Numbered from the stretch's first letter, positions 6,339 through 60,723 are shown. The stretch is DNA of 60,723 nt from Chloroflexota bacterium (GCA_003171035.1 PMXR01000052.1:1-60723), one strand, 5' to 3'. Made by a program: numbers and translations. The notes: generated by a model from the letters alone, not told the origin.

Positions 6339-6360
6339 GGAGCGGCTTGATGCCGGCTCC
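6339..6360. terminator. GC-rich hairpin between convergent fabG and the DUF3048 gene (possible bidirectional terminator)
   Basis: GGAGCGGC-ttgat-GCCGGCTCC forms about 8 bp with one bulge. There is no U-tract, so this is weak. Confidence 0.3.
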
Positions 6361-6372
6361 GGCCCGGGCGGC

Positions 6373-8478: not shown

Positions 8479-8487
8479 CGTCTCGCC

Positions 8488-9591
<1,104 letters not shown>

Positions 9592-9598
9592 TCAGCAG

Positions 9599-38577: not shown

Positions 38578-39305
38578 GTTGGCACTGGCTTCTGCTCGAC
38601 TGTCGAATTCACCGTCGCCCAGTCCGGGTGGGCCAGGACCAAGTCCAGCACCTCCCGCCACCCAAATCGCTCGCTTTGCACAACGTCATAGATGCGTCTC
38701 ACGAGGTCCAGGTCCTCTGACGTGTCGACGCACCACCGGTGGTCCGAGTGGTCTTCGGGTGAAGCGACCCGCGTCAGGCGGAACAGTTCAGGGTGGCGAT
38801 ATATGTACGGAGTGGCGTGCTCTCGCCACGTCGGGTCCGTGTCCTCGGCGCTCGCGCGCTGCAGTGCCGCAGTCGTCATGGCCTCCACGTCGAGCCCGCG
38901 CGGATACGTCCGCGGTTCCAGGGTGTTACTGGCGTAGTCGGCGCCCGTCGTAGAAAGAGCCCGAACCACCTCATCCACGAGCTCCGGGTCGATCAAGGGG
39001 CAGTCGGACGTGATCCGGACCACGACATCGGCCGCGTTGGCTTGTGCCGCCTCCACATAGCGCTCGAGCAGGTCGGTCTCGCTGCCCCGCCATAGCGCCC
39101 ACCCGGATTCCCTGGCGAGAGCGGCTATTGCGTCGTCTGCCGCGAGTCGCGTCGTAGCCACGACGACTTCGTCCACAAGGCCGGCCCGGCGCGTGCGCTC
39201 CACGACGTGCGTCAGGATTGGGACACCGCGAAGTGGGAGGAGGACCTTTCCCGGCAAACGCGAACTGCCCGTGCGCGCCTGGATGATGGCGACGGTTCGA
39301 CTCAA
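38574..39305 (-). CDS. acylneuraminate-type cytidylyltransferase (SpsF/PseF-like)
   Basis: TTG 39305 lies 6 nt after GGGAG; the ORF-track upstream extension to 39497 is Arg/Cys-rich junk. Contains VAIIQARTGSSRLPGKVLLPLRGVPIL and VVVATT. Confidence 0.7.
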   Translation of the reverse strand: MSRTVAIIQARTGSSRLPGKVLLPLRGVPILTHVVERTRRAGLVDEVVVATTRLAADDAIAALARESGWALWRGSETDLLERYVEAAQANAADVVVRITSDCPLIDPELVDEVVRALSTTGADYASNTLEPRTYPRGLDVEAMTTAALQRASAEDTDPTWREHATPYIYRHPELFRLTRVASPEDHSDHRWCVDTSEDLDLVRRIYDVVQSERFGWREVLDLVLAHPDWATVNSTVEQKPVPT

Positions 39306-39529
39306 CAGAGACTCCCGGCAGCGTCTTGAACGATCGACGTGATCATTTCCGGCGCGTCTGCAGCGCTGAATTGCGCAAACGATACACACTGCCAGTGAGG
39401 CAAATGTCGCCTGACGACGGGTAGACCGCCGCCCTACTCGGATGCGTCGACATCTCCGACGGTGGTCGGCGCTCCGGTGGCGACATTGCCGAGTCATCAG
39501 TGATGACGGCGGCGTCTGGCCACCGGCCT

Positions 39530-44256: not shown

Positions 44257-46122
<1,866 letters not shown>

Positions 46123-46210
46123 CCTGCGCCGCCTTTGGGCGCATACTTCGGCCTGAGCCGGCGGGCGGGATGCATCCTGCCGGGGCACCCGCGAGGAGGA
46201 TTGAGTCCCT

Positions 46211-46954
46211 GTGAGTTCGCCGACGGCTGTGATCCTGGCTGCCGGACTGGGCCGGCGGCTCGGCGAGTACACCGCCGCCCTGCCCAAGGCCCTGATCAAC
46301 CTTCACGGCAAGACGCTGCTGGAGCGGTCGCTCACGGCGCTCGCGGCGGCGGGATTCCAGCGCGCCTGCATCGTCACCGGCCACTGCGCGGTGAGCATCG
46401 ACGAGATTATCGGCGCGCGGAACTTCGGTCTGGAGGCCGTGACCAGGTTCAACCCGGACTACGCCACGGCCAACAACATCGTCTCGTTCCTGACGGTCGC
46501 CGACGTCGTGGAGCAGGGCTGCGTGCTGCTCAACTCCGACATCGTGTTCGACCCGTCGATCCTGGTCGACGTGGCGGCGGCTCAGACCGGAACCTGGCTC
46601 GTGGTCGACTCCGACGAGCCGCTCGGTCACGAGGAGATGAAGGTCACGGTCGACGGCGAGGGCCGGCTGACCCGCGTGAACAAGCAACTCGATCCGGCGC
46701 GGTCGGTGGGGGAGTACATAGGAATCACCCGCTTCGACGCCGCGGGCGGTCGCATCTGCCTCGACTCCGCGCGCCGGCTGGTCGACTCGGGCCAGGTGGA
46801 CCTCTACTACGAGCACGCCATCGATGCCGCGGCCGGCGATCTCGGCGCGCGCCTCATCCCGACGCGACGGCGCCTCTGGACCGAGATCGACGACGAACCC
46901 GACTACCAGCGCGGACTGCGCGAAGCGGCCCAGCTGGACGCGAAGGCACAGTGA
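46211..46954 (+). CDS. sugar/alcohol-phosphate nucleotidyltransferase (LicC-like)
   Basis: GTG start after GAGGAGG. Contains AVILAAGLGRRLGEYTAALPKALI (G-x-G-x-R-L nucleotidyltransferase loop). Confidence 0.8.
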   Translation: MSSPTAVILAAGLGRRLGEYTAALPKALINLHGKTLLERSLTALAAAGFQRACIVTGHCAVSIDEIIGARNFGLEAVTRFNPDYATANNIVSFLTVADVVEQGCVLLNSDIVFDPSILVDVAAAQTGTWLVVDSDEPLGHEEMKVTVDGEGRLTRVNKQLDPARSVGEYIGITRFDAAGGRICLDSARRLVDSGQVDLYYEHAIDAAAGDLGARLIPTRRRLWTEIDDEPDYQRGLREAAQLDAKAQ

Positions 46955-48006
46955 GCGTCGAGACCGCCGGCCACCGCTCGGTCCGCATCCCCCGCTTGAT
47001 GCGGTTGGTGGAGTCGCCGGCGCAGGCGGTCGACGAGCTGGCAGGGCTGGGCCGCGACTCGAGTTTCCTGATCGTCCACGCCGGACCGGCCTCGCCGACC
47101 GGCTACGGGGCGTCGCTCGCCAGAGTTGCCGTCGGGGCCGGCCTGAAGGTCTGCGAGGCCATCGCCGTCTCCAACACCGATGCCTGGGCACAGGCAGTGT
47201 CCGCCGCAATAGCGAAGCAGCGGCCCGAATACGTGGTCGGCGTGGGCGGCGGGCGAGTGGTCGACGTGGCCAAGGTGGCGGCTGCGCAGGCCGGTATCGA
47301 CTTCGTCAGCGTCCCGACCCAGGCGTCGAGCGACGGCATCTGCTCGCCCGTGGCGGTCATGGTCGACGAATCCGAGCATCCGCGATCGATCGCGGCCCGG
47401 ATCCCGGTGGCCGTGATCGTCGACATGGCGGTGATGTCGAGCGCGCCGGAGATTACCTGGAGGGCGGGGCTCGGCGACCTGGTGTCGAATCTGTCGGCGA
47501 TCAAGGATTGGCGCCGCGCCCACAAGCTGACCGGCGAGCCCTACGACGACTTCGCCTGTCTGGTCTCCGAAGCGGCGGCGCTGTCGGTCATCGACGACGG
47601 GGTCAGCCTTGCCGACCCGCTATTTCGCGAGAAGCTGGTGCGCGGCCTGATCCTGAGCGGCATCGCCATGGAGATGGCCGGTTCGTCGCGCCCGGCCAGC
47701 GGCGCCGAACACCTCATCAGCCACGCCCTGGACACGTTGCTCGATTCGCCCCGGCCGCACGGCCTGCAGGTCGCTTTCGGGACGATCGCCGCCGACCTGT
47801 TGCGCGGCGACGACCCGACCCGCCTCGTGGGCTATTTCCGGTCGGTAGGCCTGCCGGTATGCCCCGCGGACCTCGGCTTCGACATCGATACGCTGACCCT
47901 TGCCATCCGCCACGGCCCCGAACAGCGGCCCGGCCGGTCCACGATTCTGGACGAGGTTGGGGAGCCGCAGCTGGCGGCCCTGGCCGCTGCGTACGCCAGC
48001 TTGTAG
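46951..48006 (+). CDS. sn-glycerol-1-phosphate dehydrogenase family (AraM/EgsA-like, Fe/Zn-ADH superfamily)
   Basis: GTG 46951 overlaps the upstream stop (GTGA). Contains GVGGGRVVDVAK, VPTQASSDGICSP, GLGDLVSNLSAIKDWRRAHKLTGEPY and SSRPASGAEHLISH, which closely parallel my recalled B. subtilis AraM sequence. Confidence 0.8.
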   Translation: MSVETAGHRSVRIPRLMRLVESPAQAVDELAGLGRDSSFLIVHAGPASPTGYGASLARVAVGAGLKVCEAIAVSNTDAWAQAVSAAIAKQRPEYVVGVGGGRVVDVAKVAAAQAGIDFVSVPTQASSDGICSPVAVMVDESEHPRSIAARIPVAVIVDMAVMSSAPEITWRAGLGDLVSNLSAIKDWRRAHKLTGEPYDDFACLVSEAAALSVIDDGVSLADPLFREKLVRGLILSGIAMEMAGSSRPASGAEHLISHALDTLLDSPRPHGLQVAFGTIAADLLRGDDPTRLVGYFRSVGLPVCPADLGFDIDTLTLAIRHGPEQRPGRSTILDEVGEPQLAALAAAYASL

Positions 48007-48174
48007 CAGGGGTCACGGGTCCATCTGCGCGGTGCGCTAGTACCTTAGACAGGCTGCCCCACACACACCCACCACGCGTAGCATCGGGTCGCGTCGATTC
48101 AAGGCGCGCTAGCTTCGCCATGGTGAGGGCGGTCGTATATGGCCGCGGGCGAGAGCATCGAAGAGGCAGTCAAG

Positions 48175-50889
48175 ATGAATCTCCCGAAGATCTACCGCCG
48201 TTTCGCCGTCGCAATCATCGGCGTCCTCCTCGTCGGCCTTCTCCCGGCGTCTGCGTTGGCGACTGGGCCGGACACAATCGAAGTCCACATTGTTGGTCCG
48301 ACCATGGCCGGGCAGGCTCTCAGCGTCACGGTGACCGTTCGCGACGCTGAGGACATCCCGGACCCCGATTACTCTGGGACGATTCACTTCACGAGTTCGG
48401 ACCCGACGGCGAACGCAGACCTTACTTTGCCCGCGTTGCCAGGGGATGTGACGATCAGCGACGGCTCGGGCACTGCCGACGCCGGAACCATGACGTTCGA
48501 GAAGGTCGGCTCGCAAACGTTGACCGCCACCGACAGCATCAATGACCTGACCGGCACGTCACTGCCTGTCTCCGTTACCCCCGCCGCCGCGGATCACTTC
48601 GTGGTCAGCGCTCCGCCGACGGCCGTCGTGGGGACTGCCGCCCCGGTAACAGTCACCGCAACCGACTACTACGGCAACATCGACACCAACTACGCCGGCA
48701 CCGTCCACCTCACCAGCACGGGCCCCGGCGCCATTCTCGAAGACAACCATACGTTCACCAGCGGCGACTCGCTGGACAACGGCGTCTACACGTTCCTCAC
48801 GGGCGTCACCTTCGCCCACGTCGGAACCACACAGGTGGTCACTGCTACGGACGCCGACCATGCGCCTGTCACCGGCGCATCCGACGCAGTTACCGTCGGC
48901 CAGGCCACTCCGGACCTCGCGTTCACGAGCACGGCGCCCAGCTCTGCGGTCGTGGGCGACACCTACACCCCGACTGCCGCCTCTACCCCGGGCGATCCGG
49001 GAGAGATCACCGTCGCCCTGCATGCCCCATCGGCCGACTGCACCGAAGCGGGCGGAATAGTCACCTTCACCCATTTCGGCTCCTGCGTAATCGAGGCCGC
49101 CCAGACGGGCAACGATGACTGGGCCGCAGGCGCGGCCAGCCAGACGATCACCGTCGGCAAGGGCACGCCGACCCTGGCATTCGAGAGCACCGCTCCCGCC
49201 GGCGCCGTCGTGGACGGCCCCACGTACACCCCGACCTTCACCAAGACCACAGGCGACACCGGGCCTGTCACCGTCGTCTCCACCACCTCGAGCATCTGCT
49301 CGGTCGACGTCAACAACGCGGTGAGTTTCACCGCCTACGGCTCCTGCATCATCGACGCAACTCAGGCCTCCGACGACAACTGGATCACGTCCAACACCGT
49401 CAGCCAGACGATCCACGTTCTGGCCCACGGCTCAGCCACTCACTTCGTCGTCGCCGGCCCCGCGTCCGCGGCTCCGGAGACGGTTCAGAGCTACACCGTG
49501 ACGGCCACGGATAGCTTGGGACACACGGACGCCGGCTACACAGGAACCGTCAAGTTCACCAGCACCGACGGTGCGGCCACGCTGCCTGCCAACTCGACAC
49601 TCACCTCCGGCAGCAAGACGTTCAGCGTCACGCTTGTGACCGCCGGAACGCAGACCGTCACCGCCACCGACACGGTGCTGTCGTCGATCACTGGAACCTC
49701 AAACGGAGCGACCGTTACACGCGTTCTCAGCGAGTACCACCCGCAGTCCCCGCCCGTCCGGCTTCTCGATAGCCGTACCGGTAACGGTATGCCGCATGGC
49801 GCCGTGGCAAAGCTCAGGGCCGGATCGCCTGTAACCATCCAAATCGGTGGTCGCAATGGGGTCGGGCTCGGCGCCACGGCGGTGACTGTGAACGCTGCGA
49901 TCGTCTACCCGAGCGCGGCCGCATGGCTCTTCCTCGGTCCCAACCCTACGCCCAGCCCCACAACCTTCACCATCGCCTTCAACAAGATGGACATCACGAA
50001 CTACGGTGTGACCGTCGCTCTGAGTTCGACTGGAACCTTGAGCGCCACCTACATGGCCACATCGGGGACGACAGATCTCGTCCTGGACATCACGGGCTGG
50101 TTCGCGCCCGCTACCACCGCCGGCGGAGAGACCTACTTCCCGATTACGCCGTATCGAGCGCTCGACAGCCGGATCGGAAACGGAGTCTCCAAGACGAAGT
50201 TCAAGGCGAACGTCCCACGGTCGTTCCCGATTTGGAACCGAGGTGACGTGCCGACTACCGCCCGGGCGGTCACCGGCAACCTCACGGCAGTCAATGAGAA
50301 CTATCACGGAGCCGTCTTCCTGGGCCCCGGTGGCCCGTCCGGGCCCAGTGCCACTATCAATTTCGTGGCAGGTCAGATTCGAGGCAACAGCATTACCGTT
50401 GCACTCAGCTCCACGGGGTCGTTGACGGCGACGTTCGAGGCGAAGTCCGGCAAGTTGACGGACCTTGTCTTCGACGTGACCGGCTACTACACGACCTCCC
50501 AGTCGGGGTCCAAGTACGTGCCTCTAACCGCCGCTCCCATCCTTGACACCCGAAACGGCACCGGCGGCCTGCCGATTCAAAGGTTCGCGGCCAATGTCCC
50601 TCACACTTTCACCGCTCAGAACCAGGCCGGCGTCCCCATCGGGGCGACGGGCATCACCGCCGTTGTGGCGGTAGTCCATCAGAACGCCTCATTCGCGCTC
50701 GCCGTAGGCCCCGTCGCCTCAGCGCTAACGGCGACATCGTCGCTCAACTTCATCAGTACTGACAATTGCTCAAACGGGGCGACAGTTGCCCTGAGTAACA
50801 CGGGAACGCTGAGCGCTATGTTCATGTCCCACGGGGGCACGACCGACGTTCTGATATACGTGACCGGCTATTTCATCAAGCAGCCATAG
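48175..50889 (+). CDS. secreted repeat protein 1: Ig-like repeats plus 3 C-terminal ~120-aa modules
   Basis: Signal peptide MNLPKIYRRFAVAIIGVLLVGLLPASALA. It has five Ig-like segments followed by three modules. No catalytic domain recognised. Confidence 0.8.
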   Translation: MNLPKIYRRFAVAIIGVLLVGLLPASALATGPDTIEVHIVGPTMAGQALSVTVTVRDAEDIPDPDYSGTIHFTSSDPTANADLTLPALPGDVTISDGSGTADAGTMTFEKVGSQTLTATDSINDLTGTSLPVSVTPAAADHFVVSAPPTAVVGTAAPVTVTATDYYGNIDTNYAGTVHLTSTGPGAILEDNHTFTSGDSLDNGVYTFLTGVTFAHVGTTQVVTATDADHAPVTGASDAVTVGQATPDLAFTSTAPSSAVVGDTYTPTAASTPGDPGEITVALHAPSADCTEAGGIVTFTHFGSCVIEAAQTGNDDWAAGAASQTITVGKGTPTLAFESTAPAGAVVDGPTYTPTFTKTTGDTGPVTVVSTTSSICSVDVNNAVSFTAYGSCIIDATQASDDNWITSNTVSQTIHVLAHGSATHFVVAGPASAAPETVQSYTVTATDSLGHTDAGYTGTVKFTSTDGAATLPANSTLTSGSKTFSVTLVTAGTQTVTATDTVLSSITGTSNGATVTRVLSEYHPQSPPVRLLDSRTGNGMPHGAVAKLRAGSPVTIQIGGRNGVGLGATAVTVNAAIVYPSAAAWLFLGPNPTPSPTTFTIAFNKMDITNYGVTVALSSTGTLSATYMATSGTTDLVLDITGWFAPATTAGGETYFPITPYRALDSRIGNGVSKTKFKANVPRSFPIWNRGDVPTTARAVTGNLTAVNENYHGAVFLGPGGPSGPSATINFVAGQIRGNSITVALSSTGSLTATFEAKSGKLTDLVFDVTGYYTTSQSGSKYVPLTAAPILDTRNGTGGLPIQRFAANVPHTFTAQNQAGVPIGATGITAVVAVVHQNASFALAVGPVASALTATSSLNFISTDNCSNGATVALSNTGTLSAMFMSHGGTTDVLIYVTGYFIKQP
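48262..49734 (+). repeat. protein-level Ig-like repeats arranged A-A-B-B-A
   Basis: The three A units start at about 48262, 48592 and 49435 and share HFVV..P....G....VTVTATD..G..D..Y.GTV.FTS and ..TQ.VTATD. The two B units start at about 48907 and 49165 and share TP.LAF.STAP..AVV...YTPT and a paired Cys with GSC.I.A.Q..DDNW. Confidence 0.7.
49735..50886 (+). repeat. three tandem copies of the ~120-aa module (protein 1)
   Basis: Approximate copies are 49735-50109, 50134-50493 and 50515-50886. Each opens Y-x-P-x-x-x-P-x-x-L-D-[ST]-R and closes [DY]-[IV]-T-G-[YW]-[FY]. Copies 1 and 3 are the most diverged of the twelve. Confidence 0.85.
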
Positions 50890-51059
50890 GCCGCCGCTCG
50901 GCTCATCGCATCGTGCCTTACACGCCAAGATAGACATACGGCACCGTTCCAATGCTAGGATTATCGGCGGGGTCGTGCCCGAACCCGCTGGTAATCAACG
51001 CGATTCGCGCGGAGTTGCCGATCATTGGCCTTTCGGGGCCGTCGATTGCCGTGCATCGG

Positions 51060-53678
51060 ATGAGGACCGTAATGTTCGAATGCTTGCCCCTGCTTCAGCT
51101 GGCCACGCGGTTTGCGGCGGTCGGACGAAGCGCTGACAGACACTTCGCTCGCGGGATGCTGTCGATCGGTCTCGCCATCGCCCTGGCGATCTCCGCGATT
51201 CCTGCTTTGGCCGCCGCCACGGGGCCTGTGGCGTCGGCGGACCAGACACCGGACTCCATTCAGTATCAGGAATACCTGTCTCACGGCACTGAGACTTACT
51301 CATTCACGCCGGGCATCCACGCAGCCGTTTCGTATCGGCCGCGAACCGGGGACACGGAGACCATCGACGGAGCGAAACCCGTTGCGCTCCCGGCGGGCTA
51401 CCCGGCGCAGCCGGCTCCGGTTGCGCCTTCAAGCGCGGCGGCTGAGGGTACTGTGCGGCCGGCAGGGACACTGAATCCACTCCGCCGGGAGGTCTTCGGT
51501 TTCCTGCCCTACTGGGAGCTTTCGAGCACGCTCGACTACGACACTTTGTCGACGATCGCCTACTTCGGCGTCAGCGTCGGGAGCGACGGGAACCTCTATG
51601 AGGCCGGCAACGGCTGGGCCGGGTGGAACAGCTCGACGATGACGACCATCATCAACACCGCCCATGCCCATGGCACTCGCGTCGTGCTCACGGCTCAGGC
51701 CTTCGCGTGGGGCACCAGCGAAGCTGCCTCGCAGACTGCGCTTCTATCCAGCCCGACGGCCAGGCAGAACGCCGCCGCGACCATTGCGGCCACAGTCCGT
51801 AGCAGAGGCGTCGACGGCGTGGACCTGGACTTCGAGCCGATCGCGTCCGGCCAGCGCTCCAACTACGTTCTGTTCGTTCAGCAGCTTCGGATCGAGCTCG
51901 ACAAGCTTCAGCCCGGCTACGAACTGACCTTCTGCGCCACGGGGGCCCCGGGCACCTATGACCTGCCGAATCTCCTGGCGCCCGGCGCCGCGGACGCGGT
52001 CTTCATCATGGGCTACAACCTCAGAGGTGGCGACCCGGCGACGGCGGGATCGATCGACCCTCTGGCCAGCACCTTGACCAGATACACGCTTACCAGTGTG
52101 GTTGGAACGTACCTGGGCCAGGTTCCGGCGTCGAAGGTCATTCTGGGATTGCCGTGGTATGGCGCTGCGTATTCCACCGCCGCGAGCCACAGCCTCAATG
52201 CCGCGGTGGCGTCTGCGGTCACATATGGAAAGCCGGTCGAGTCGTACTACTCAACTCTATCGGGGCTCGCGTCGATGTCGGACAGCACACACCTGGGGAA
52301 GTCATATGACATCGGCGAGCAGACCGCGTGGACAGCGTATTACGGCACCTTCGGCGGACAACCCACATGGCGTGAAGGCTACTTTGATGATGCGCGGGCG
52401 TTGGGTGCCAAGTGCGATGCAATAGACGGTTGGAACCTCCGTGGTGTGGGAATATGGGCGCTGGGCTACGACAACAACAACGGCGATGGAGATCTGACGG
52501 GCGAGATCGCCGCGAAGTTCGAGACCGGTGCCGCTGGCACCACATTCCACCCGCTGGATCCCGTTCGGATTGTCGACACCCGTATTCGGCTGGGCATAGC
52601 TGGGAAGTTGCTTGCGAATGTGCCCCAGACTTTCCTTGTCGCGGGGTTGAACGGCGTAGACGGGACGGCCACGGCGGTTACCGGCAATCTGACCGTCGTC
52701 AACGAAACGAAGTCCGGCGCCCTGTATCTGGGCCCATATGCCACTAGCAGACCATCCACGTCCACGATCAACTTCGCGGCTGGGAGCACCACCGGCAACG
52801 GCGTGACGATTGGGCTGAGTGCGACAGGCAGCTTGAGCGCGGTCTACATGGCCAGCGCCGGCAACACCACTAACCTGGTGTTCGACCTGACAGGGTTCTT
52901 CACGCCAGATACGAAAGGAGCAACGTACCATCCGATGCGTCCCGTGCGAGCTGTCGACACGCGTATTGGATTGGGAACGCACGGCAAACTGGCTGCCAAG
53001 AGCCCCAGGGTATTCCAGGTCAGCACTGAAAACGGAATCCCCAAGGAGGCAGTCGCCGTCACTGCGAACATAGCGGTCGTCAATTCGTCCAGATCGGGCG
53101 CGCTATACCTTGGGCCAACCTCTCTCGCAGCTCCGCTGGCGTCGACTATCAACTTCAGTCGGTCTCAGATCGTCGCCAACAACGCGACCGTTCCTTTGAG
53201 CCCAACCGGATCGTTGAGTGCGACGTATCTCGCGCCCCAGGGAAACACCACCGACTTCGTACTAGACATCACGGGCTATTACACGCTCGATGCCAGCGGC
53301 GTCAGGTTCGTGCCGATTACGCCAGCCCGCTATGTGGACACGAGGTCGGGGCTCGGCGGCAGTGGCGGCAAACTCCGGGCGAATACTCCTAGGTCATTCG
53401 TGATCGACGGCCTCGGCAGCGTGCCCATGACTGCGACTGCGATAACTGGAAATGTGGCTGTGGTGAACGAGACCAGGTCCGGCGCGATGTTCGTAGGGCC
53501 TGATTCCATGGCGAAGCCTTCCACGTCTACTCTCAACTTCGTTCGTGGGGACATACGAGCCAACGGCATTACGGTGATGGTCGGCGGCAGTCCCGGTAGT
53601 TTGAGCGCGACGTATATGGCCGCGAGCGGGAATACGATGGATCTTGTCCTCGACATAACCGGCTACTTTGTGCCGTAG
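51060..53678 (+). CDS. secreted GH18 glycoside hydrolase plus 3 C-terminal ~120-aa modules (start uncertain 51060-51156)
   Basis: Hydrophobic leader MLSIGLAIALAISAIPALAAA. The GH18 domain spans about 51485-52500 with a perfect DxxDxDxE (DGVDLDFE; Glu codon at 51834-51836). Three modules follow. Confidence 0.8.
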   Translation: MRTVMFECLPLLQLATRFAAVGRSADRHFARGMLSIGLAIALAISAIPALAAATGPVASADQTPDSIQYQEYLSHGTETYSFTPGIHAAVSYRPRTGDTETIDGAKPVALPAGYPAQPAPVAPSSAAAEGTVRPAGTLNPLRREVFGFLPYWELSSTLDYDTLSTIAYFGVSVGSDGNLYEAGNGWAGWNSSTMTTIINTAHAHGTRVVLTAQAFAWGTSEAASQTALLSSPTARQNAAATIAATVRSRGVDGVDLDFEPIASGQRSNYVLFVQQLRIELDKLQPGYELTFCATGAPGTYDLPNLLAPGAADAVFIMGYNLRGGDPATAGSIDPLASTLTRYTLTSVVGTYLGQVPASKVILGLPWYGAAYSTAASHSLNAAVASAVTYGKPVESYYSTLSGLASMSDSTHLGKSYDIGEQTAWTAYYGTFGGQPTWREGYFDDARALGAKCDAIDGWNLRGVGIWALGYDNNNGDGDLTGEIAAKFETGAAGTTFHPLDPVRIVDTRIRLGIAGKLLANVPQTFLVAGLNGVDGTATAVTGNLTVVNETKSGALYLGPYATSRPSTSTINFAAGSTTGNGVTIGLSATGSLSAVYMASAGNTTNLVFDLTGFFTPDTKGATYHPMRPVRAVDTRIGLGTHGKLAAKSPRVFQVSTENGIPKEAVAVTANIAVVNSSRSGALYLGPTSLAAPLASTINFSRSQIVANNATVPLSPTGSLSATYLAPQGNTTDFVLDITGYYTLDASGVRFVPITPARYVDTRSGLGGSGGKLRANTPRSFVIDGLGSVPMTATAITGNVAVVNETRSGAMFVGPDSMAKPSTSTLNFVRGDIRANGITVMVGGSPGSLSATYMAASGNTMDLVLDITGYFVP
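52545..53675 (+). repeat. three tandem copies of the ~120-aa module (protein 2)
   Basis: Approximate copies are 52545-52907, 52926-53285 and 53307-53675, joined by linkers of about 6-7 aa. Confidence 0.9.
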
Positions 53679-53682
53679 CGAG

Positions 53683-55743
53683 ATGCCTACGATGAATGCC
53701 GCATTGTCCAGGTTCCGTCGCATGGCGGCAGTGGGACTGCTGGCAACGGCGGTCTGGCTGCCGACGGTGGTGGTTCCCGAGGTAGCCGCAGGCACGGCAT
53801 GCACGAGCTGGTCGAGCTCCACGACCCCACCGCCCACGATCCGCGTTCTTCGAACTGGTACCGGGCTCGTCGAGACGGTCGATTTCAGGGTCTACACCAA
53901 GATCGTGATGGCCGCGGAGTTCAACAAGACCTGGCCCTTCGAAACACTCCGGGCAGGTGCCGTCGCGGTCAAGGAGTACGCCTGGTATTACGTGCTACAT
54001 CCTCGAGGCGGCAGCAAGAACGGCTCGTGCTACGACGTCCAGGACAACTCCTCCGATCAGGATTACTGGCCGGAGACCAGGTACCCCTCCACGTCCGAGA
54101 TAAACGCCGTCGACACCACGTGGGGAGAGTCGGTTCTGAGGGGCGGCGCGGTCTTCCTCGCCGGGTACAGGTCGGGGACGAGCCTGGTGTGTGGCGGTGA
54201 CAGGGACGGTTACCACCTGTGGCAGCTGAGCGCTCGCGAATGCGGTCTCGAGGGCAAGTCGGCCGAGACGATCCTGCACATCTACTTCGACCCGGTGGCG
54301 ATTCAAGGCGGTCCGGTGGTCCCCGGCGCCCCGACCGCCGTTTCGGCGACCGGCTTTGACACTTCGGCTCTGGTGACCTGGTCGGTCCCGGCATCCAGCG
54401 GCGGCACGTCGATCACGGGATACACCGCGACATCAGATCCCGACGGCAAGACCTGCTCGACCACCGGGACCCAGTACTGCGAAGTCGCCGGTCTGATGAA
54501 CCTGACCTCATATACATTCACGGTTCGGGCAACGAACAACATCGGCACCGGGCCGTCTTCCGACCCCTCCAATGCCGTGACTCCGGCGGTGGTACATGGG
54601 TCCACCTTCGCTGCGATCAAGCCGGTGCGATTGCTCGACACTCGCGTGGGCAACGGCCTCGGCGGCAAGTTCCTCGCCAACACCCCGCGAACCTTCCAGG
54701 TAAGCAAGCGGGACGTGATTCCGGCCGGGGCCACGGCCGTCACGGGGAACCTCACCGTAGTCGGTGAATCGGGCCCGTCGGCCATCTATCTCGGGCCGGA
54801 TCCAATCGCCTACCCCTCGACTTCAACCATCAACTTCAAGCAGGGAGACGTCATCGGCAATGGTGTGATGGTCGCCCTGAGTTCGAATGGCGAGTTGAGC
54901 GCCACATACCTGGCGGCGTCAGGTCAGACGACGGATCTTGTCTTCGATGCGACGGGGTACTTCACGGCGGCAGCCAGCGGCGACAGATACCACCCGCTCG
55001 ATCCCGCTCGGCTGGTCGATAGCCGGCTCGGCCTCGGTCTCGGCGGCAAGGTCAGGGCCAATACACCCGCCACATTCACCGTCTGGAATCATGCGGGCGT
55101 CCCGATCGGGGCCACCGCGGTCACCGGTAATGTGACTGTCGTCAATGCCACGCACTCCGGCGCGGTCTTCGTCGGCCCGGATCCGATCGCGAAGCCGACC
55201 ACTTCGACGATCAACTTCAAGCAGGGTCAGGTCATTGGCAACAACGTCACCGTTGCCCTAAGCACCAAAGGCCAACTCAACGTTACATTCATGTCGGCGT
55301 CGGGAAACACCACGGATCTGGTCTTCGATATCACCGGCTACTACACGGCCGACGGCACGGGAGACACCTACGTGCCAATCCAGCCGATCCGCCTGCTGGA
55401 TACGCGTTTCAAGAACGGCCTGTCCGGCAAGTTTTCATCCAACACGCCCGGAACATTCCAGGTAAGTGGCCGGGGGTGCGTTCCGGCGACTGCCACAGCA
55501 GTGAGCGGCAACGTAGCCGTGGTCAACCAAACGAGATCATACGCAGTCTTCGTCGGTCCGAAACCCACAGCCAGCCCTTCGACATCGACCCTCAACTTCC
55601 CTAGCGGCATCGTCAGGGCAAACGGTCTGGCGGTGGCACTCAGTACCACCGGAACTCTCAGCGCGACGTACATGTCCGCGGCCGGACAGACCACGGACCT
55701 GGTCTTCGACGTCACCGGCTACTTCCAACCATCGCCGAAATGA
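53683..55743 (+). CDS. secreted SpoIID/LytB-like domain + fibronectin type III + 3 C-terminal ~120-aa modules
   Basis: Signal-like N-terminus. The SpoIID-like blocks are YTKIVMAAEF...ETLRAGAVAVKEYAWYY, CYDVQDNSSDQDY and AVDTTWGESVL (about 53830-54300). The FN3 domain spans about 54320-54590 (PGAPTAVSATGFDTSALVTWSVP...YTFTVRATNNIGTGPSS). Confidence 0.8.
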   Translation: MPTMNAALSRFRRMAAVGLLATAVWLPTVVVPEVAAGTACTSWSSSTTPPPTIRVLRTGTGLVETVDFRVYTKIVMAAEFNKTWPFETLRAGAVAVKEYAWYYVLHPRGGSKNGSCYDVQDNSSDQDYWPETRYPSTSEINAVDTTWGESVLRGGAVFLAGYRSGTSLVCGGDRDGYHLWQLSARECGLEGKSAETILHIYFDPVAIQGGPVVPGAPTAVSATGFDTSALVTWSVPASSGGTSITGYTATSDPDGKTCSTTGTQYCEVAGLMNLTSYTFTVRATNNIGTGPSSDPSNAVTPAVVHGSTFAAIKPVRLLDTRVGNGLGGKFLANTPRTFQVSKRDVIPAGATAVTGNLTVVGESGPSAIYLGPDPIAYPSTSTINFKQGDVIGNGVMVALSSNGELSATYLAASGQTTDLVFDATGYFTAAASGDRYHPLDPARLVDSRLGLGLGGKVRANTPATFTVWNHAGVPIGATAVTGNVTVVNATHSGAVFVGPDPIAKPTTSTINFKQGQVIGNNVTVALSTKGQLNVTFMSASGNTTDLVFDITGYYTADGTGDTYVPIQPIRLLDTRFKNGLSGKFSSNTPGTFQVSGRGCVPATATAVSGNVAVVNQTRSYAVFVGPKPTASPSTSTLNFPSGIVRANGLAVALSTTGTLSATYMSAAGQTTDLVFDVTGYFQPSPK
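54607..55731 (+). repeat. three tandem copies of the ~120-aa module (protein 3)
   Basis: Approximate copies are 54607-54966, 54988-55347 and 55369-55731. These copies fit the consensus best. Confidence 0.9.
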
Positions 55744-55793
55744 GCGACGGCGGTGCCCGCTACGGCCAAGCCGCTCACGAGCCCGAGAAGATC

Positions 55794-55819
55794 GCGCCGC
55801 GGGCTAGACTTTGCGGCGC
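55794..55819 (+). terminator. perfect 7-bp GC hairpin about 50 nt after the protein 3 stop (possible attenuator/terminator)
   Basis: GCGCCGC-(12 nt loop)-GCGGCGC at 55794-55800 and 55813-55819. No following U-tract. Confidence 0.25.
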
Positions 55820-56010
55820 AAACGCCACTCGCTCGATGTACCAAACCACATCGCAGTCCACCCAAACGGGCCACCCCGTCCCCGGACCAACGCGCGACTG
55901 CCCGCTGCCATTCCAACGTGACAAGGTGGTTGACCTGACCAGTGGCATCGTCCCAGTCGGACGTTCGCAGCGCGCTGACTGGCTTGCGGTCTGAATTGGA
56001 GATCATCCCA

Positions 56011-57996
56011 ATGCGCAAACTCGCGATCGCGATCGTGATCGGCTTGCTGGCCTCGGTCGGTGCAACGGTCGCCTCCGCCCCGAAGGCTGCCGCAGGCTCT
56101 TCGCCGCAGCTCAAGGTCGTTCTAGTGGTGGGAGCAGTGGAAGGCGCGACGGCGTCATACATCGCCGATGCCGATGCGGCGGCCGCCGAGTTTGCTCACT
56201 ACACCAGCAACATCGTCAAGGTCTACTCGCCCAATGCGACCTGGGCCGCCGTGCAGACGGCCGCGCAAGGGGCAAGCGTGCTGGTCTATCTGGGCCACGG
56301 CAACGGCTATCCGAATCCGTACAACTCCAAGCTTTACACGGACAGAGACAACGGCATGGGCCTCAATGCCACGGCCAACGCCGGCAACTCGAACAAGAAG
56401 TACTACGGCGAGCTGTACATGGCCCAGCTTCAGCTGGCCCCGAACGCCGTGGTTCTCCTCAACCACTTGTGCTACGCGTCCGGCAACAGCGAGTCCGGCC
56501 AGGGCCTGCCCTCTCTTTCGACGGCTGAGACTCGCGTGGATGGCTTCGGCGCCGGCTTCCTTCGCGGCAACGCCAGGGCAGTGATCGCGGAAGGCTTGGG
56601 CAATCTGAATTGGTACATCGACCACCTTTTCACACCGGGCCTGACGATCGACCAAATCTGGAAGACCTACCCCAACTTCCACAACCACGTCACGACCTGG
56701 TCTAGCACTCGGAATGCGGGATACACGTCCGAGATCGACCCCGACGTCAGCCACCCACAGAGCGACGGCGACATCTACTACAGATCCATGGTGGCCCAGC
56801 CCGGCCTCACGACCGACGCCATCGGTGTCGGCGTCACCTACCAGCCAACCACCTACACGGCAATCGACCCGGTGCGTCTACTCGACTCTCGCACGGGCAA
56901 CGGCTTCGGGGGCAAGCTAGCTGCCAACAGTCCCAGGGGCTTCCAGGTGGCGGGCCGCGGCGTAATTCCCGCCGGCGCCACTGCGGTCACCGGCAACGTC
57001 GCGGTTACGGGTCAGACGAGATCGGGAGCGATCTACGTAGGTCCGGCCTGGCTCACCTACCCGACGACCTCCACGGTCAACTTCCCGGCCGGCGCGGTGG
57101 TCGACAACGGAGTGACGGTAGCGCTAAGTCCGACGGGATATCTCTACGCCACCTACATGGCAGCCTCCGGCAACAAGACCGATCTCGTGTTCGACGCGAC
57201 CGGCTACTTCATGCCCGATCAACTCGGCTCGACATATCACGCCGTCGACCCGGCCCGCCTGGTCGACACGCGGAAAGGCGTCGGCGGGATCGGCGGCCTC
57301 GTCTACGCCAATAGGCCAGTCACCTTCGATGTCTGGCTCCACGGCAACGTTCCGCTCGGGGCCACAGCGATTACCGGCAACGCGACCGTGGTCGGCGCAA
57401 CCGGCTCATGCGCGTTCTTCCTCGGACCCAAGCCGCTCACCAGCCCGACGACGTCGACAGTCAACTTCAAAGCCGGCCAGACCGTTGGCAACAACCTGAC
57501 GGTAGCCCTGAGCGACACGGGAACTCTCAGCGCCACGTACATTGCCAAGGCCGGAAACCACGCCGCCCTCGTCTTCGACGTGACCGGTTACTACACCCAC
57601 GATCTCACGGGTGCGCGATACGTGCCGATCACGCCGGTCCGTTTGCTGGATACGAGGGCCGGGAACGGACACGCCGGCAAGCTCTCGGCCAATTCGGCAT
57701 TGCCCTTCCAGATCACCGGCCGCGGCGATGTGCCCGACGGATCAGCGGCAGTCAGTGCCAATGCCACCGTGGTGAATGAGACTACTCACGGGGCGATCTT
57801 CATCGGCCCGGTCGCGAACAACGCGCCACTTACTTCGACGCTCAATTTCGCCTCGGGCGAAATCCGGGGCAACGGCCTGACCGTGCTGCTGGGTGACGGC
57901 GGGATCCTCACCGCCACCTACATGGCCGCGTCCGGCAACAAGACCGATCTGGTAGTCGACGTCACCGGCTATTTCGCACCGATCCCGGCGCCCTAG
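56011..57996 (+). CDS. secreted protein: about 280-aa N-terminal domain with candidate His/Cys dyad plus 3 C-terminal ~120-aa modules
   Basis: ATG 56011 lies 10 nt after GGAG. The signal peptide is MRKLAIAIVIGLLASVGATVASA. The head has beta-strand/HG and beta-strand/C blocks (VLVYLGHGNG, VVLLNHLCYASG). Confidence 0.8.
   Translation: MRKLAIAIVIGLLASVGATVASAPKAAAGSSPQLKVVLVVGAVEGATASYIADADAAAAEFAHYTSNIVKVYSPNATWAAVQTAAQGASVLVYLGHGNGYPNPYNSKLYTDRDNGMGLNATANAGNSNKKYYGELYMAQLQLAPNAVVLLNHLCYASGNSESGQGLPSLSTAETRVDGFGAGFLRGNARAVIAEGLGNLNWYIDHLFTPGLTIDQIWKTYPNFHNHVTTWSSTRNAGYTSEIDPDVSHPQSDGDIYYRSMVAQPGLTTDAIGVGVTYQPTTYTAIDPVRLLDSRTGNGFGGKLAANSPRGFQVAGRGVIPAGATAVTGNVAVTGQTRSGAIYVGPAWLTYPTTSTVNFPAGAVVDNGVTVALSPTGYLYATYMAASGNKTDLVFDATGYFMPDQLGSTYHAVDPARLVDTRKGVGGIGGLVYANRPVTFDVWLHGNVPLGATAITGNATVVGATGSCAFFLGPKPLTSPTTSTVNFKAGQTVGNNLTVALSDTGTLSATYIAKAGNHAALVFDVTGYYTHDLTGARYVPITPVRLLDTRAGNGHAGKLSANSALPFQITGRGDVPDGSAAVSANATVVNETTHGAIFIGPVANNAPLTSTLNFASGEIRGNGLTVLLGDGGILTATYMAASGNKTDLVVDVTGYFAPIPAP
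56854..57981 (+). repeat. three tandem copies of the ~120-aa module (protein 4)
   Basis: Approximate copies are 56854-57216, 57235-57597 and 57619-57981. Confidence 0.9.
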
Positions 57997-58011
57997 TACC
58001 GGACTTCAGCC

Positions 58012-58773
58012 CTAGGAAGCCGGAACCGTCCGCCGCAGGAAGCCGCTGTGGCAGTACGTGGTCGTCATGCGCTCGTAGCTGCTGTCGACCTCGAAGTCCG
58101 GATGAGTCTTGAGGAAGTCGCGAACTGCTTCGAGCGGATTGTCGAGGTCCCAGGTCGGCTTGCCGTTCGGGGCGTCGGCGACCAGCGGCATCACCTCGTC
58201 GAAGACGACTATGTAACCGCCGGGGCCGATCAGGGGAGCGTATAGCTCCAGCTCGGCCCGGACGTGGTCGCGGGTGTGGTTGGAGTCGAGCATGACCATC
58301 ACGCTCTCGCCCGGCTGGATCCGGCTGCGGATCGAAGCCATCGTCGACGCTTCGGTCGAGCTGCCCTCGATCAGCGTGATCCGGCGGCTGGCCGGGTGAC
58401 TCTCGATGGCGAGCCGGTTGTACTTGCGAATCTCGATGTCCACGCCGATCACGCGGCCTCGACCCATCAGGTCGCACAGGGAGGCGTAGAGGATCAAAGC
58501 TCCGCCGTGGGCGACCCCGCTCTCCACGATGACGTCCGGGCGGTTCTTCCAGACCAGTTCCTGAACCATCAGGATGTCTTCGGGGAGCTGGATGATCGGA
58601 ATCCCGAGCCAGGTGACTTCGTAGGACAGCTTCCGCTGCCAGTTCGAACGAGTCCAGAGGTTGGCTACGACGGCGAATCCCTCCGGCGAGTAGATGTCTA
58701 CCTCGCGCTCGCCATCGGCGGTCTGGACCTTGATGAGTCTGTCCGGCTGTCGTTCCGGTGTGGATTCTGTCAC
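58012..58773 (-). CDS. CmcI-family (cephalosporin hydroxylase-like) methyltransferase, sugar O-methyltransferase-like
   Basis: GTG 58773 overlaps the upstream stop (GTGA). Contains WLGIPIIQLPEDILMVQELVWKNRPDVIVESGVAHGGALILYA. Confidence 0.75.
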   Translation of the reverse strand: MTESTPERQPDRLIKVQTADGEREVDIYSPEGFAVVANLWTRSNWQRKLSYEVTWLGIPIIQLPEDILMVQELVWKNRPDVIVESGVAHGGALILYASLCDLMGRGRVIGVDIEIRKYNRLAIESHPASRRITLIEGSSTEASTMASIRSRIQPGESVMVMLDSNHTRDHVRAELELYAPLIGPGGYIVVFDEVMPLVADAPNGKPTWDLDNPLEAVRDFLKTHPDFEVDSSYERMTTTYCHSGFLRRTVPAS

Positions 58774-59663
58774 TGGCCAATCCTCTCGCGTGTCGACCAC
58801 CAGTCGGTGGTTTGTTGGATTCCTTGCTGCAGATCGTACTTTTGCTTCCAGCCAGTGCTCAGCAGCGGTGCAGGATTGCCGGTGGCCGGCCATCCGCTGG
58901 ACTCGGAGTCCGGCAGTGAACTGGTCCCGAGCAGGTCCGGCCTTCCGGTGGCGCGACCTATTTCATCGAAGACGTCCCGCAGTTTTACCGGGCTGCCGGT
59001 GCAAATGTCGACCCGACCCGTCAGCGGGCTCTCGGCAACCTTGCACACGGCCTCGGCAACGTCCTCGACGTGAAGGTAGTCGCGGGACTGCGATCCGCTC
59101 GTCAACTCGATCCGCTCGCCTTGAAGCAGCGAGCGGATCACCAGCGGGACGACACGTCCCGGATCCTCCCAAGGTCCGTACAGGTAGTGGATGTGGGCGC
59201 AGGCGACGGTGATGGACCGTTCGGCGAGACCACCGGCCAGCTGGTGCTGGGCGGCTTTGGCCGCGGCGTAGATCGTCGGCCGGGAGGTGTTGAGGTTCTC
59301 GAGGCATGTTCCGGCCAGGATGAGCCGGCGGCACGTACCGCCGTCGGCGAGAGCCCCCATGAGATTCATACCGGCCCGCAGCGACGCCAGATTCTCCGGC
59401 ACGGCTCGGAGGTAGAAGGCCGGCTCCGCATACCAGGCCAGGTGGATGGCAGCGTCGGGCCCAATCGAGCGGATCGTGTCGTAAGCCCAAGTCTGGTCCG
59501 CGAGGTCGCCCTCGTGAATCTCCAGACCCGACTCGATTCCGGCAAGGCGGACGCGTGAAGCTCCCGGCAGGGTAATCCCGCGGACTTCCACGCCCCGCTC
59601 GACCAGGGCTCGGGCCACGGAGGCGCCGATGAATCCAGTCGCTCCGGTCAGCAGGATTCGCAT
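58770..59663 (-). CDS. NAD-dependent sugar epimerase/ketoreductase (extended SDR)
   Basis: ATG 59663 overlaps the upstream stop (ATGA). Contains MRILLTGATGFIGASVARAL and YAAAK (YxxxK). Confidence 0.8.
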   Translation of the reverse strand: MRILLTGATGFIGASVARALVERGVEVRGITLPGASRVRLAGIESGLEIHEGDLADQTWAYDTIRSIGPDAAIHLAWYAEPAFYLRAVPENLASLRAGMNLMGALADGGTCRRLILAGTCLENLNTSRPTIYAAAKAAQHQLAGGLAERSITVACAHIHYLYGPWEDPGRVVPLVIRSLLQGERIELTSGSQSRDYLHVEDVAEAVCKVAESPLTGRVDICTGSPVKLRDVFDEIGRATGRPDLLGTSSLPDSESSGWPATGNPAPLLSTGWKQKYDLQQGIQQTTDWWSTRERIGQ

Positions 59664-60112
59664 CAGTGCTGCCGGATCTCCCAGTCGTACGGGATGTCGT
59701 TGTCGAACGGATCGAGGCGGATGGAGCGGCTCGGATCGTGCGGGTGAGTGCAGCAATTGGCCACTATGGCCGTTTCGCTGCCCATGCCCTTGAAGCCGTT
59801 CCATACGCCGGGTGGGATCTGCACCAGGCTGTGGTTGTCCGGTCCGAGGAAGACCTCCATGACCTCGCCTCTGGTGGGCGAGCCCTCGCGATCATCGAAC
59901 AGGACGAGCTTGATCCGGCCGTGGATGCAGGCGTAGTTGAGGGTCATCTCGGCATGCTTGTGCCAGCCTTTGACGACGCCCGGGTAGATCGTCGAGAAGT
60001 AGATCTCACCGAACTCGGTGAAATGCGGATCGGTTCTCTTGAGCATGTGCAGTACCGTTCCACGCTCATCGGGGATCCGCTTGAGGGGGACTACGAGCAC
60101 GCCGTCGATCAT
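59663..60112 (-). CDS. dTDP-4-dehydrorhamnose 3,5-epimerase-like cupin
   Basis: The start is ATG 60112, with GTG 60118 as an alternative. Contains IPDERGTVLHMLK, GWHKH and PPGVWNGF. Size is about 149 aa. Confidence 0.8.
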   Translation of the reverse strand: MIDGVLVVPLKRIPDERGTVLHMLKRTDPHFTEFGEIYFSTIYPGVVKGWHKHAEMTLNYACIHGRIKLVLFDDREGSPTRGEVMEVFLGPDNHSLVQIPPGVWNGFKGMGSETAIVANCCTHPHDPSRSIRLDPFDNDIPYDWEIRQH

Positions 60113-60114
60113 CG

Positions 60115-60723
60115 TCACACCAACGTCAGCTTTGGACCTGGAATTATGAACTTGCCGCCCAGGCGCCGGTACTCTGCCTGTTGAGCCAGAATCTCTTCGG
60201 CGAAGTTCCAGGCGAGCAGAAGGCATTCGTCGGGTCGGCGGGCCACGAGCTGGTCCGGATCGACGATGGGTATATGCACGCCCGGCATCAGGAAGCCTTG
60301 CTTATGCGGGCTCCGATCGGCCACGAATGAGATCGTGTCGGTGCCGATCCCGAAGGCGTTGAGCAGAACCGCGCCTTTGGCCGCTGCCCCGTACGCGGCG
60401 ATTTGATGGCCTTGTGCCACGAGGGCGGCCATCATCGCCCGCAGTTCCCGTCCTAACTCCTCCACTCGGCCGGCGAAGGCGGCGTAGTACTCGGAGCCGC
60501 ACAGGCCGACGGCCGCTTCTTCGGCGAAGAGCGAGCGGACCGCCGCGCCCTGCTCGCCCGCTCCGGTGCGCATGGCGAAGACACGCAGAGATCCGCCGTG
60601 GACGGGGATCGCCTCCACATCGACCACAGTCAGCCCGTTGCGCTCGAAGACCCTCGAAAGAGCCGTGAGCGAGTGGTAGAAGAGATGCTCGTGGTAGATC
60701 GTGTCGAACTCGAGCCGCTCCAC
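60115..60723 (-). CDS. NDP-hexose C-methyltransferase (TylCIII-type), C-terminal part only; 5' end beyond window
   Basis: Contains FDTIYHEHLFYHSL, HGGSLRVF, AYGAAAKGAVLLN, ADRSPHKQG and LLAWNFAEEI. The frame is open to the window edge. Confidence 0.85.
   Translation of the reverse strand: MERLEFDTIYHEHLFYHSLTALSRVFERNGLTVVDVEAIPVHGGSLRVFAMRTGAGEQGAAVRSLFAEEAAVGLCGSEYYAAFAGRVEELGRELRAMMAALVAQGHQIAAYGAAAKGAVLLNAFGIGTDTISFVADRSPHKQGFLMPGVHIPIVDPDQLVARRPDECLLLAWNFAEEILAQQAEYRRLGGKFIIPGPKLTLV

Follow-up and report, generated by a model that had tools for sequence, protein, structure and literature searches.

It has been shown that the SLH and CWB2 anchors, which bind secondary cell wall polymers and are combined with peptidoglycan hydrolase, protease or adhesin heads, depend on a pseudo-trimer made up of exactly three repeats in tandem (PMC4973711, PMC6081394). 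In C. difficile, 29 cell wall proteins (CWPs) contain CWB2, with the anionic polymer PSII as the ligand (PMC4973711, PMC6081394), and the genes for the polymer directly follow the cwp gene cluster, which holds "several" of the cell wall protein genes (PMC4973711). Here we analyze an array of four plus-strand genes (p1 to p4, positions 48175–57996) in a 60,723-nucleotide (nt) stretch of DNA from a Chloroflexota bacterium (GCA_003171035.1 PMXR01000052.1; hereinafter the window, with all positions counted from its first letter). Each of these genes encodes a secreted protein that ends with three tandem copies of the same module of ~125 amino acids (aa), for which a jelly-roll fold is predicted, and we estimate at roughly 0.55 the probability that this triple tail is a surface targeting and retention unit that binds the cell's own envelope.

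From the comparison with described systems, the closest functional parallels of the tail appear to be CWB2 and SLH, and the closest structural one the trimeric tip of Bd2133 (see below). Similar to the tail, CWB2 (PF04122) comprises three repeats that act as one unit, defines a paralogous family with hydrolase and cysteine protease heads, can be N- or C-terminal, and is encoded in a gene cluster that adjoins a locus for an anionic polymer. The features that typify CWB2-type anchors, namely three repeats, a paralogous family and both enzyme and adhesin heads, are all found in the tail family, the analogy being one of function only. Indeed, the window proteins have no Pfam match to CWB2, which is an alpha/beta domain with a three-helix-bundle core whereas the module is an all-beta jelly-roll; the CWB2 repeats are differentiated and non-exchangeable, whereas those of the tail tend to homogenise within a protein; and the two occur in different phyla. 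The SLH domains of Bacillus and Paenibacillus likewise consist of three tandem motifs; these form a pseudo-trimer by which S-layer proteins and enzymes are held non-covalently on a pyruvylated secondary cell wall polymer, and recognise an anionic group through conserved arginines, to which an R-x-x-D-x-R motif, invariant and present in every module, might correspond. The SLH motif, however, is helical and only ~55 aa long, as opposed to the all-beta module of ~125 aa; there is no match to SLH (PF00395) in p1–p4 even at E <= 1, and none of the ~50 window open reading frames (ORFs) scanned encodes a pyruvyltransferase (CsaB). Choline-binding repeats (PF01473), which are ~20 aa long, aromatic-rich and variable in number, also have no Pfam match among these proteins, with their fixed three modules of ~125 aa.

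A module family with a fixed copy number

The sequence-only reading of this DNA had described four back-to-back genes for secreted proteins with three modules of ~120 aa each, a layout that is borne out by the four consecutive ORFs (48139–50889, 50952–53678, 53668–55743 and 55942–57996), their signal peptides and the 12 modules found here. The third-codon-position G+C of the four ORFs is 0.75–0.81, as is typical of real genes in a genome of ~65% GC. By inspection of the sequence, a signal peptide was recognized at each likely start codon, i.e., Met 48175 (p1), Met 51060 or 51072 (p2), Met 53683 (p3, 5 nt past the stop codon of p2) and Met 56011 (p4). The similarity of p2 to its orthologues starts at ORF residue ~36–41, which supports the region of Met 51060/51072, and the database protein P0274 (661 aa) is identical to p4 from Met 56011, in agreement with the start assigned to p4.

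Each of the four ORFs terminates with modules in tandem, exactly three in number, that recur every ~127 aa (381–387 nt in the DNA). When the six-frame translation of the window was searched with the module profile, exactly 12 matches were obtained, all of them in p1–p4 and none in any other gene of the window. The 12 modules align cleanly, with 38–54% identity to the reference and E-values of 1e-46 to 1e-60 for individual modules in the hidden Markov model (HMM) search, and share 11 invariant columns (D13, R15, G19, G65, P66, F79, G97, L99, G108, T118 and G119); their similarity is far beyond chance.

Searches of Pfam, NCBIfam, PHROGs and the PDB sequences with the module and the tail yielded no meaningful match, only spurious or sub-threshold ones (Get4, LPD23 and "bluetail", E = 0.02), and in 49 diverse relatives as well as in the Streptomyces homologues the tail is covered by no Pfam model. 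The Streptomyces homologues bear only the annotations "PKD domain-containing" or "hypothetical." The sub-threshold matches to "bluetail," a putative surface-protein domain of NCBIfam (NF041519, E = 0.02–0.03), comprise residues 773–790 of p1 and 548–561 of p3 (~50455–50508 and ~55309–55350), i.e., the last strand of module 2 (DLVFDVTGYY), and could be due either to chance or to a remote kinship with another surface-protein tail.

The AlphaFold2 model of the first module of p2, built from the 12-sequence alignment, is an all-beta jelly-roll (pLDDT 95.6, pTM 0.87). A Foldseek search of the PDB with this model gave moderate matches only, all of them to jelly-roll or beta-sandwich domains with binding or assembly roles. 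The top match (E = 4e-4, TMq 0.55, 14% identity) is the C-terminal tip of the MAT fibre protein Bd2133 of Bdellovibrio bacteriovorus (8ond, 8ok3), likewise a beta-sandwich of ~120 residues, which assembles into a three-fold trimer and makes up the adhesive end of this modular protein. Unlike the tail, in which three copies are fused in one chain, Bd2133 is a homotrimer of three chains on a beta-helix stalk, and it is a predator's adhesin rather than a wall anchor. Further matches include Ena pilins, jelly-roll coat proteins of plant viruses, the TNF-like lectin Bc2L-C and two carbohydrate-binding modules (CBMs) with a TMq of ~0.4, CBM4 of CelK (3p6b) and CBM35 of Xyn30D (4qaw), which are beta-sandwiches as well and serve as non-catalytic targeting modules on glycoside hydrolases. 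These CBMs, in contrast to the strict packed triplets of the tail, are single independent domains in variable number, and the module has no Pfam match to the CBM families (CAZy CBM4/6/35-like). By the model, the module is a predicted jelly-roll beta-sandwich of ~125 aa that represents an undescribed domain family; it displays no catalytic features, and with nothing pointing to catalysis, the tail appears to be non-catalytic. The proposal that the module is not a known domain with an unrelated role is compatible with these searches, in which no sequence family was matched and the similar folds were exclusively jelly-rolls of the binding or assembly type.

The triple of p3 (54598–55740; 34 sequences) was modelled by AlphaFold as a single confident rigid body (pLDDT 94.0, pTM 0.90). 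Because a flexible string of domains would not yield a pTM of 0.90, the triple can be regarded as one rigid unit. Given this value, the linkers of ~5 residues, the jelly-roll topology with both termini at one pole, the copy-number rule and the trimeric nearest fold, the triple would most likely be a closed single-chain pseudo-trimer. No single chain with an equal overall arrangement was detected among the PDB structures (TMq <=0.22) or the viral models (TMq <=0.26) in Foldseek searches with the triple, the matches being to multi-domain toxins and picornavirus polyproteins, and our literature search found no paper on a jelly-roll triple wall anchor or on a surface layer of Limnocylindria.

An exhaustive profile search retrieved 28,239 clusters (50% identity) at E <= 1e-3, of which 5,728 are at E <= 1e-30. 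The family is concentrated in Limnocylindria, widespread Chloroflexota of soil, peat and freshwater of which we know no well-studied cultured member, and is also present in Streptomyces and Arthrobacter. Nearly all of the 72 loci taken from species-representative genomes belong to Chloroflexota/Limnocylindria metagenome-assembled genomes (MAGs) from fen, peat and soil. Relatives from cultured Actinomycetota (e.g., Streptomyces yangpuensis WP_257858379 and Arthrobacter WP_236809696) share 31–34% identity with the window tail along 99% of its length. The Arthrobacter protein (904 aa), which is encoded on a plasmid of Arthrobacter sp. FW305-BF8 (7812–10526 of locus L075), combines an N-terminal triplet with an unannotated C-terminal part of ~470 aa; genes of the SIR2 family and for DUF87 proteins are located ~1–5 kb downstream, on the opposite strand.

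The number of modules and their position were examined in the best 150 representatives of the family, a diverse set. Exactly three modules are present in 140 of these, the others having 6, 9 or evidently truncated sets, and the same number is found in 118 of the 120 Streptomyces relatives. In 131/150 representatives, no more than 15 residues follow the triplet, whereas it is N-terminal or internal in ~14 (~9%). Tail-only proteins are rare: 5/150 have 40 aa or less ahead of the first module, and at least four of these five contain a C-terminal extension of at least 120 aa. Of the 118 representatives that start with Met and have >30 aa ahead of module 1, ~70% passed a crude signal-peptide test. 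Module identity is 62.9% within a protein as compared to ~52% between proteins; therefore, the repeats homogenise inside genes while their count stays at three, which suggests that the number as such is under selection.

Only partial support was obtained for the idea that the modules at positions 1, 2 and 3 diverged long ago and have since remained distinct: 594 of the 750 best matches keep their position, and the mean identity between modules in the same position (52.6%) is close to that between different positions (51.1%), the within-protein value being higher. In long-contig MFD MAGs (loci L008, L045 and L064), module genes appear to be split into overlapping ORF pieces with one or two modules each, which are probably assembly frameshift errors or pseudogenes and inflate the ORF counts at those loci.

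Heads, the conserved operon and the glycopolymer locus

The heads of the family are very diverse and of extracellular type, including fn3, PKD, Big, SdrD_B, CarboxypepD_reg, RCC1 and PQQ propellers, beta-helix, GH18, SpoIID and serine protease domains, and many of them have no Pfam match at all. The idea that a constant tail, a non-catalytic all-beta module of the binding type, is reused on very different extracellular heads is in agreement with this spectrum. By head diversity and position, the tail has the profile of an accessory targeting module of secreted proteins. The window tails have isoelectric points (pI) of 8.3–9.7 and the heads of 4.1–5.6, with family medians of 8.2 and 4.6, respectively; the basic tails would suit an anionic polymer such as the surrounding locus would make, and the charge lends weak support to binding to the cell's own envelope.

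The head of p1 contains three repeats of ~100 aa (41–48% identical) and two Cys-containing repeats of ~85 aa, the latter seen by eye. The sequence-only reading was thus right about the repeats; their Ig-like identity is plausible, with no confirming match in Pfam or, for the repeat profile, in the PDB. The GH18 assignment of p2 holds, including the intact DxxDxDxE catalytic motif (DGVDLDFE, residues 288–295, 51813–51836), and the nearest solved relatives of this domain include chitinases as well as YdhD, YaaH and the cortex-lytic enzyme of Bacillus, GH18 enzymes that act on peptidoglycan or cortex. The SpoIID/LytB-like domain and the FN3 domain of p3 were likewise recovered, with the SpoIID motif VMAAEF...ETLRAGAVAVKEYA. 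TIGR02669 scores 29 bits on p3, under its cut-off of 83, and therefore p3 contains a short SpoIID-type domain rather than a full SpoIID/LytB equivalog.

The head of p4, previously left unassigned, can now be tentatively placed. It contains a His-Gly motif (VLVYLGHGNG, 56293–56307) and a Cys motif (NHLCYASG, 56461–56484; VVLLNHLCYASG), and the segments VLVYLGHG and VVLLNHLC are candidates for the catalytic dyad, in which His-Gly and Cys each come after a hydrophobic strand; the residues H67, G68 and C125 are invariant across nine orthologues. Peptidase_C25 matches two of these nine orthologues (best E = 8.7e-5) and Peptidase_C50 one, below the Pfam thresholds; the window p4 head itself has no match in Pfam or among the PDB sequences. 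We predict that head 4 is probably a clan-CD (gingipain/caspase-like) cysteine peptidase. Together, the predicted GH18, SpoIID-type and peptidase heads look like a wall-remodelling set.

The order GH18–SpoIID–head 4 is kept in at least eight other MAG loci (L004, L008, L035, L042, L043, L046, L048 and L068), with partial sets elsewhere, and across the MAGs these heads are 45–73% identical to those of the window. Thus, the three genes comprise an old conserved operon of Limnocylindria, which corrects the picture of swapped heads given by the sequence-only reading. Recent head-swapping or gene conversion is also ruled out by the DNA-level identity of only 60–76% between the module copies of the window. 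An Ig-repeat gene holds the position of p1 in the syntenic locus L013 but is only 34% identical, as against 67% for the neighbouring GH18 head; this tail protein often accompanies the operon and diverges much faster than the trio. In a single MAG (CAWFJD01), tail genes are found at 9 loci, with at least 10 intact; therefore, the four window genes are a small conserved subset of the tail-bearing proteins.

The array lies inside a glycopolymer locus of ~50 kb, as had been recognized; this locus starts near 7.5 kb and continues past the right edge of the window. The locus encodes WecG/TagA, an ABC-2 permease, a Wzt-type ATPase, many GT2/GT4 glycosyltransferases, PseB/DegT/NeuB-type proteins for nonulosonic acid, a CMP-sugar transferase, LicD, a nucleotidyltransferase, Fe-ADH, and CmcI-type and C-methyltransferases. 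The trio of LicD, nucleotidyltransferase (MobA/IspD-like) and Fe-ADH_2 genes upstream of the array also precedes the module genes in L013 (76–83% identical), and the predicted functions, LicD representing a phosphotransferase family, suggest that the polymer is decorated with polyol-phosphate from a nucleotide-activated precursor, similar to teichoic acids. The downstream flank genes also follow the array in L004, L006, L027 and L045 (70–93% identical). Given flanks so similar to those of several Limnocylindria MAGs, a member of Limnocylindrales is the most likely source of the window.

Homologues of 38 glycan-pathway proteins of the window were sought within 10 kb on either side of module genes, and such neighbours were found at 23 of the 73 module loci. 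When loci of at least 12 kb were split by head, glycan neighbours were present at 16/18 loci that encode an orthologous GH18, SpoIID or peptidase head vs. 2/39 other tail loci (Fisher p = 3.7e-10, orthologous loci not being phylogenetically independent). The envelope-glycan association therefore belongs to the operon and not to the tail; the linkage of homologues to wall-polymer loci that the sequence-only reading implied holds for the operon heads but fails for tail genes at large. In one MAG (L001/L010, ~7627–8229 and 6090–6950), a three-gene module array adjoins MurT- and GatD-like genes (peptidoglycan stem-peptide amidation); as far as their predicted function goes, these genes show that the organisms make peptidoglycan typical of single-membrane bacteria.

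Function of the triple tail

For the triple tail, we infer a binding function with a ligand in the cell's own wall. Under this hypothesis, head and tail would be exported through Sec, after which the triple jelly-roll body would bind non-covalently a glycan of the envelope of the same cell, either peptidoglycan or an anionic secondary polymer, and so retain or position the head at the surface. Limnocylindria would put the triple tail on many secreted proteins, with the window genes being one conserved operon among them, composed of a variable Ig-repeat protein and the putative wall-remodelling trio (GH18 glycan hydrolase, SpoIID-type lytic enzyme and clan-CD cysteine peptidase) and kept by the envelope-glycopolymer locus. 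We would tentatively go further, at somewhat less than even odds, and suggest that the tail is a third class of three-repeat pseudo-trimer wall anchors after SLH and CWB2, structurally unrelated to both, which is based on the jelly-roll and accounts for most of the displayed surface proteome of Limnocylindria, an abundant yet uncultured group, and is also employed by Streptomyces. If so, single-membrane bacteria would have arrived by convergence at a "rule of three" as the design principle of non-covalent anchoring to the wall. If the tail is an anchor, three unrelated folds (SLH, CWB2 and jelly-roll) would each have settled on three fused repeats, and the reason for the number three would become a testable structural question. 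The module marks dozens of secreted proteins in each genome, and naming the family would provide an annotation for thousands of "hypothetical" proteins and a handle on the surface proteome of Limnocylindria, and the homologues in cultured Streptomyces and Arthrobacter make experiments feasible now.

Several observations weigh against retention at the cell's own envelope. Mild evidence against any wall binding comes from phages, which commonly make use of genuine wall-binding domains: tblastn searches of 50,697 phage genomes with a Limnocylindria tail and a Streptomyces tail gave no match, and no phage endolysin or receptor-binding protein bears the module, heavily sampled actinophages included. 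The fold matches of the module are weak (TM <= 0.56), and jelly-rolls fill many roles. The proposed three-fold arrangement derives from pTM, linkers, copy number and the nearest fold rather than from the geometry of the model. A median pI of 5.7 shows that the Streptomyces tails are not basic, there is no general linkage of tail genes to glycan loci, and the linkage statistic includes orthologous loci that share ancestry. Finally, a viral-classed contig (5851–6771 of L076, UViG_3300003320_000592) encodes a secreted protein of 306 aa with a single module (E = 5e-13). This small secreted protein is the one module match in IMG/VR and is uninformative on wall-binding use. Its contig has 70% GC, the single module is followed by an unrelated region of ~150 aa, and no other protein was seen to depart clearly from the triplet rule; the lone module might homotrimerise. 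With respect to linkage, the C. difficile CWB2 family (29 genes) only partly adjoins the polymer locus, and therefore the missing general linkage does not disprove an anchor.

A more specific proposal, which was that of the sequence-only reading, is that the ligand of the tail is the polymer encoded by the ~50 kb around the array (a chain exported via TagA/ABC that bears nonulosonic acid and LicD phospho-groups), with the four proteins as the dedicated surface proteome of this polymer. The array is embedded in the glycan locus with conserved synteny, the product of the locus would be an anionic polymer (LicD, nucleotidyltransferase, Fe-ADH, NeuB/Pse and CMP-transferase) to which basic tails might bind, and the layout resembles that of C. 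difficile, where the PSII polymer locus is next to the cwp cluster. The linkage, however, tracks the GH18, SpoIID and peptidase heads and not the tail, with glycan neighbours at just 2 of the 39 other tail loci; these heads act on peptidoglycan-type substrates, so that the co-location may reflect co-regulated envelope growth and not the identity of the ligand. Furthermore, no such locus is found near the tail genes of Streptomyces and Arthrobacter, and one MAG spreads at least 10 tail genes over at least nine loci, which leaves the notion of a cognate surface proteome weakly supported. We consider binding to this particular polymer doubtful. The broader claim of a wall-polymer anchor stays plausible through its parallels with SLH and CWB2, whereas the tail-wide glycan linkage that went with it did not hold up.

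The ligand could also be foreign. The nearest folds, the adhesive fibre tip of a predatory bacterium, CBM4/CBM35 and a TNF-like lectin, are those expected of a lectin- or CBM-like adhesin that delivers enzymes and adhesins to prey or substrate by binding the walls of other microbes, fungal chitin or environmental polysaccharide; the GH18, SpoIID and cysteine peptidase heads would equally well form a bacteriolytic or chitinolytic kit, and in Streptomyces versions with a PKD spacer as the sole head, the tail itself may be the functional part. Given, however, that the hydrolase trio is syntenic with the genes for biosynthesis of the cell's own envelope glycan, that most of the heads are non-enzymatic domains of surface type and that phage receptor-binding proteins include no relatives of the module, we find a foreign target unlikely. 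The resemblance of the module to self-assembling jelly-rolls (viral coat proteins and Ena endospore pilins) and the compact, rigid three-domain body in the model could alternatively fit a self-assembly unit, with the pseudo-trimers packed side by side in an oligomeric scaffold or S-layer-like lattice on which the heads are exposed, and some Chloroflexota rely on S-layer-like walls (PMC10608941). Such a lattice would have to accommodate dozens of paralogues with unrelated heads of widely differing size, which are hard to fit together, and would be expected to include a dominant tail-only protein, none of which was seen (5/150 with <=40 aa before the first module), making self-assembly very unlikely. 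Least probable appears to be a C-terminal sorting or secretion signal, analogous to the C-terminal domain of type IX secretion, that is read by a dedicated machine and possibly removed. A common C-terminal tail on unrelated cargo, observed in 131/150 representatives, is a hallmark of sorting domains, but three copies with a total of ~380 aa far exceed the known ones, ~9% of the representatives, including the Arthrobacter protein, have the triplet at the N-terminus or inside, and all four window proteins possess ordinary Sec-type signal peptides. The family spans Chloroflexota and Actinomycetota, and no shared dedicated secretion system is evident near the genes.

Coordinates and other genes of the window

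The coordinates of the array and its immediate flanks are given in Table 1.

Table 1. Genes, domains and module triplets of the array and the adjacent genes (E-values of modules are from the HMM search, in the order of the modules)
Feature	Positions	Strand	Description
Gene p1	48175..50889	+	Signal peptide (MNLPKIYRRFAVAIIGVLLVGLLPASALA), repeat-rich head of ~490 aa, triple tail
p1 tail	49732..50880	+	Modules 49732-50109, 50128-50496, 50509-50880; E 2e-49, 1e-51, 2e-46
Gene p2	51060..53678	+	Signal peptide, GH18 head, triple tail; ORF opens at 50952
p2 GH18 domain	51735..52472	+	PF00704, E = 2.5e-26, 93.5 bits vs. cut-off 29.6
p2 tail	52542..53675	+	Modules 52542-52910, 52923-53288, 53304-53675; E 8e-55, 3e-55, 6e-55
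Gene p3	53683..55743	+	Signal peptide, SpoIID-like domain, FN3, triple tail
p3 SpoIID/LytB-type domain	53854..54129	+	PF08486, E = 7.9e-10, 39.7 bits vs. cut-off 23
p3 FN3 spacer domain	54328..54573	+	PF00041, E = 9.9e-11; matches to titin and contactin FN3
p3 tail	54601..55731	+	Modules 54601-54969, 54985-55350, 55366-55731; E 1e-57, 4e-60, 2e-58
Gene p4	56011..57996	+	Signal peptide (MRKLAIAIVIGLLASVGATVASA), probable clan-CD cysteine peptidase head, triple tail
p4 head	56080..56841	+	Probable caspase/gingipain-like (clan CD) peptidase
p4 tail	56851..57981	+	Modules 56851-57219, 57229-57603, 57616-57981; E 5e-57, 7e-54, 1e-54
Upstream flank	45265..48006	+	LicD 45265-46122, nucleotidyltransferase 46211-46954, Fe-ADH_2/glycerol-1-phosphate-dehydrogenase-like 46951-48006 (Pfam)
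Downstream flank	58012..60723	-	CmcI-type methyltransferase, NAD epimerase, RmlC-like epimerase, C-methyltransferase (Pfam)

Elsewhere in the glycan locus, 23507–29298 and 38574–39497 encode a PseB-like dehydratase, a DegT aminotransferase, a GT28-like/GNAT fusion, NeuB with a SAF domain and a CMP-sugar cytidylyltransferase; given this predicted Pse/Neu-type pathway, the product of the locus is probably acidic. A 744-aa ORF on the minus strand (29326–31560), with ~15 hydrophobic segments and no Pfam match, is a candidate for a novel membrane enzyme (polymerase, ligase or GT-C-like). The left part of the window (34–5583) contains genes of fatty acid synthesis (biotin carboxylase, FabZ/FabA-like, FabF, biotin carrier protein and FabH).

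In the region of the array (48000–58000), four of the five 2-kb intervals show a negative GC skew (-0.07 to -0.15), with a slightly positive value at 52–54 kb, and the AT skew is mostly positive, a pattern that differs from that of the remaining window and is likely caused by the Thr/Ala/Val-rich composition of the genes.

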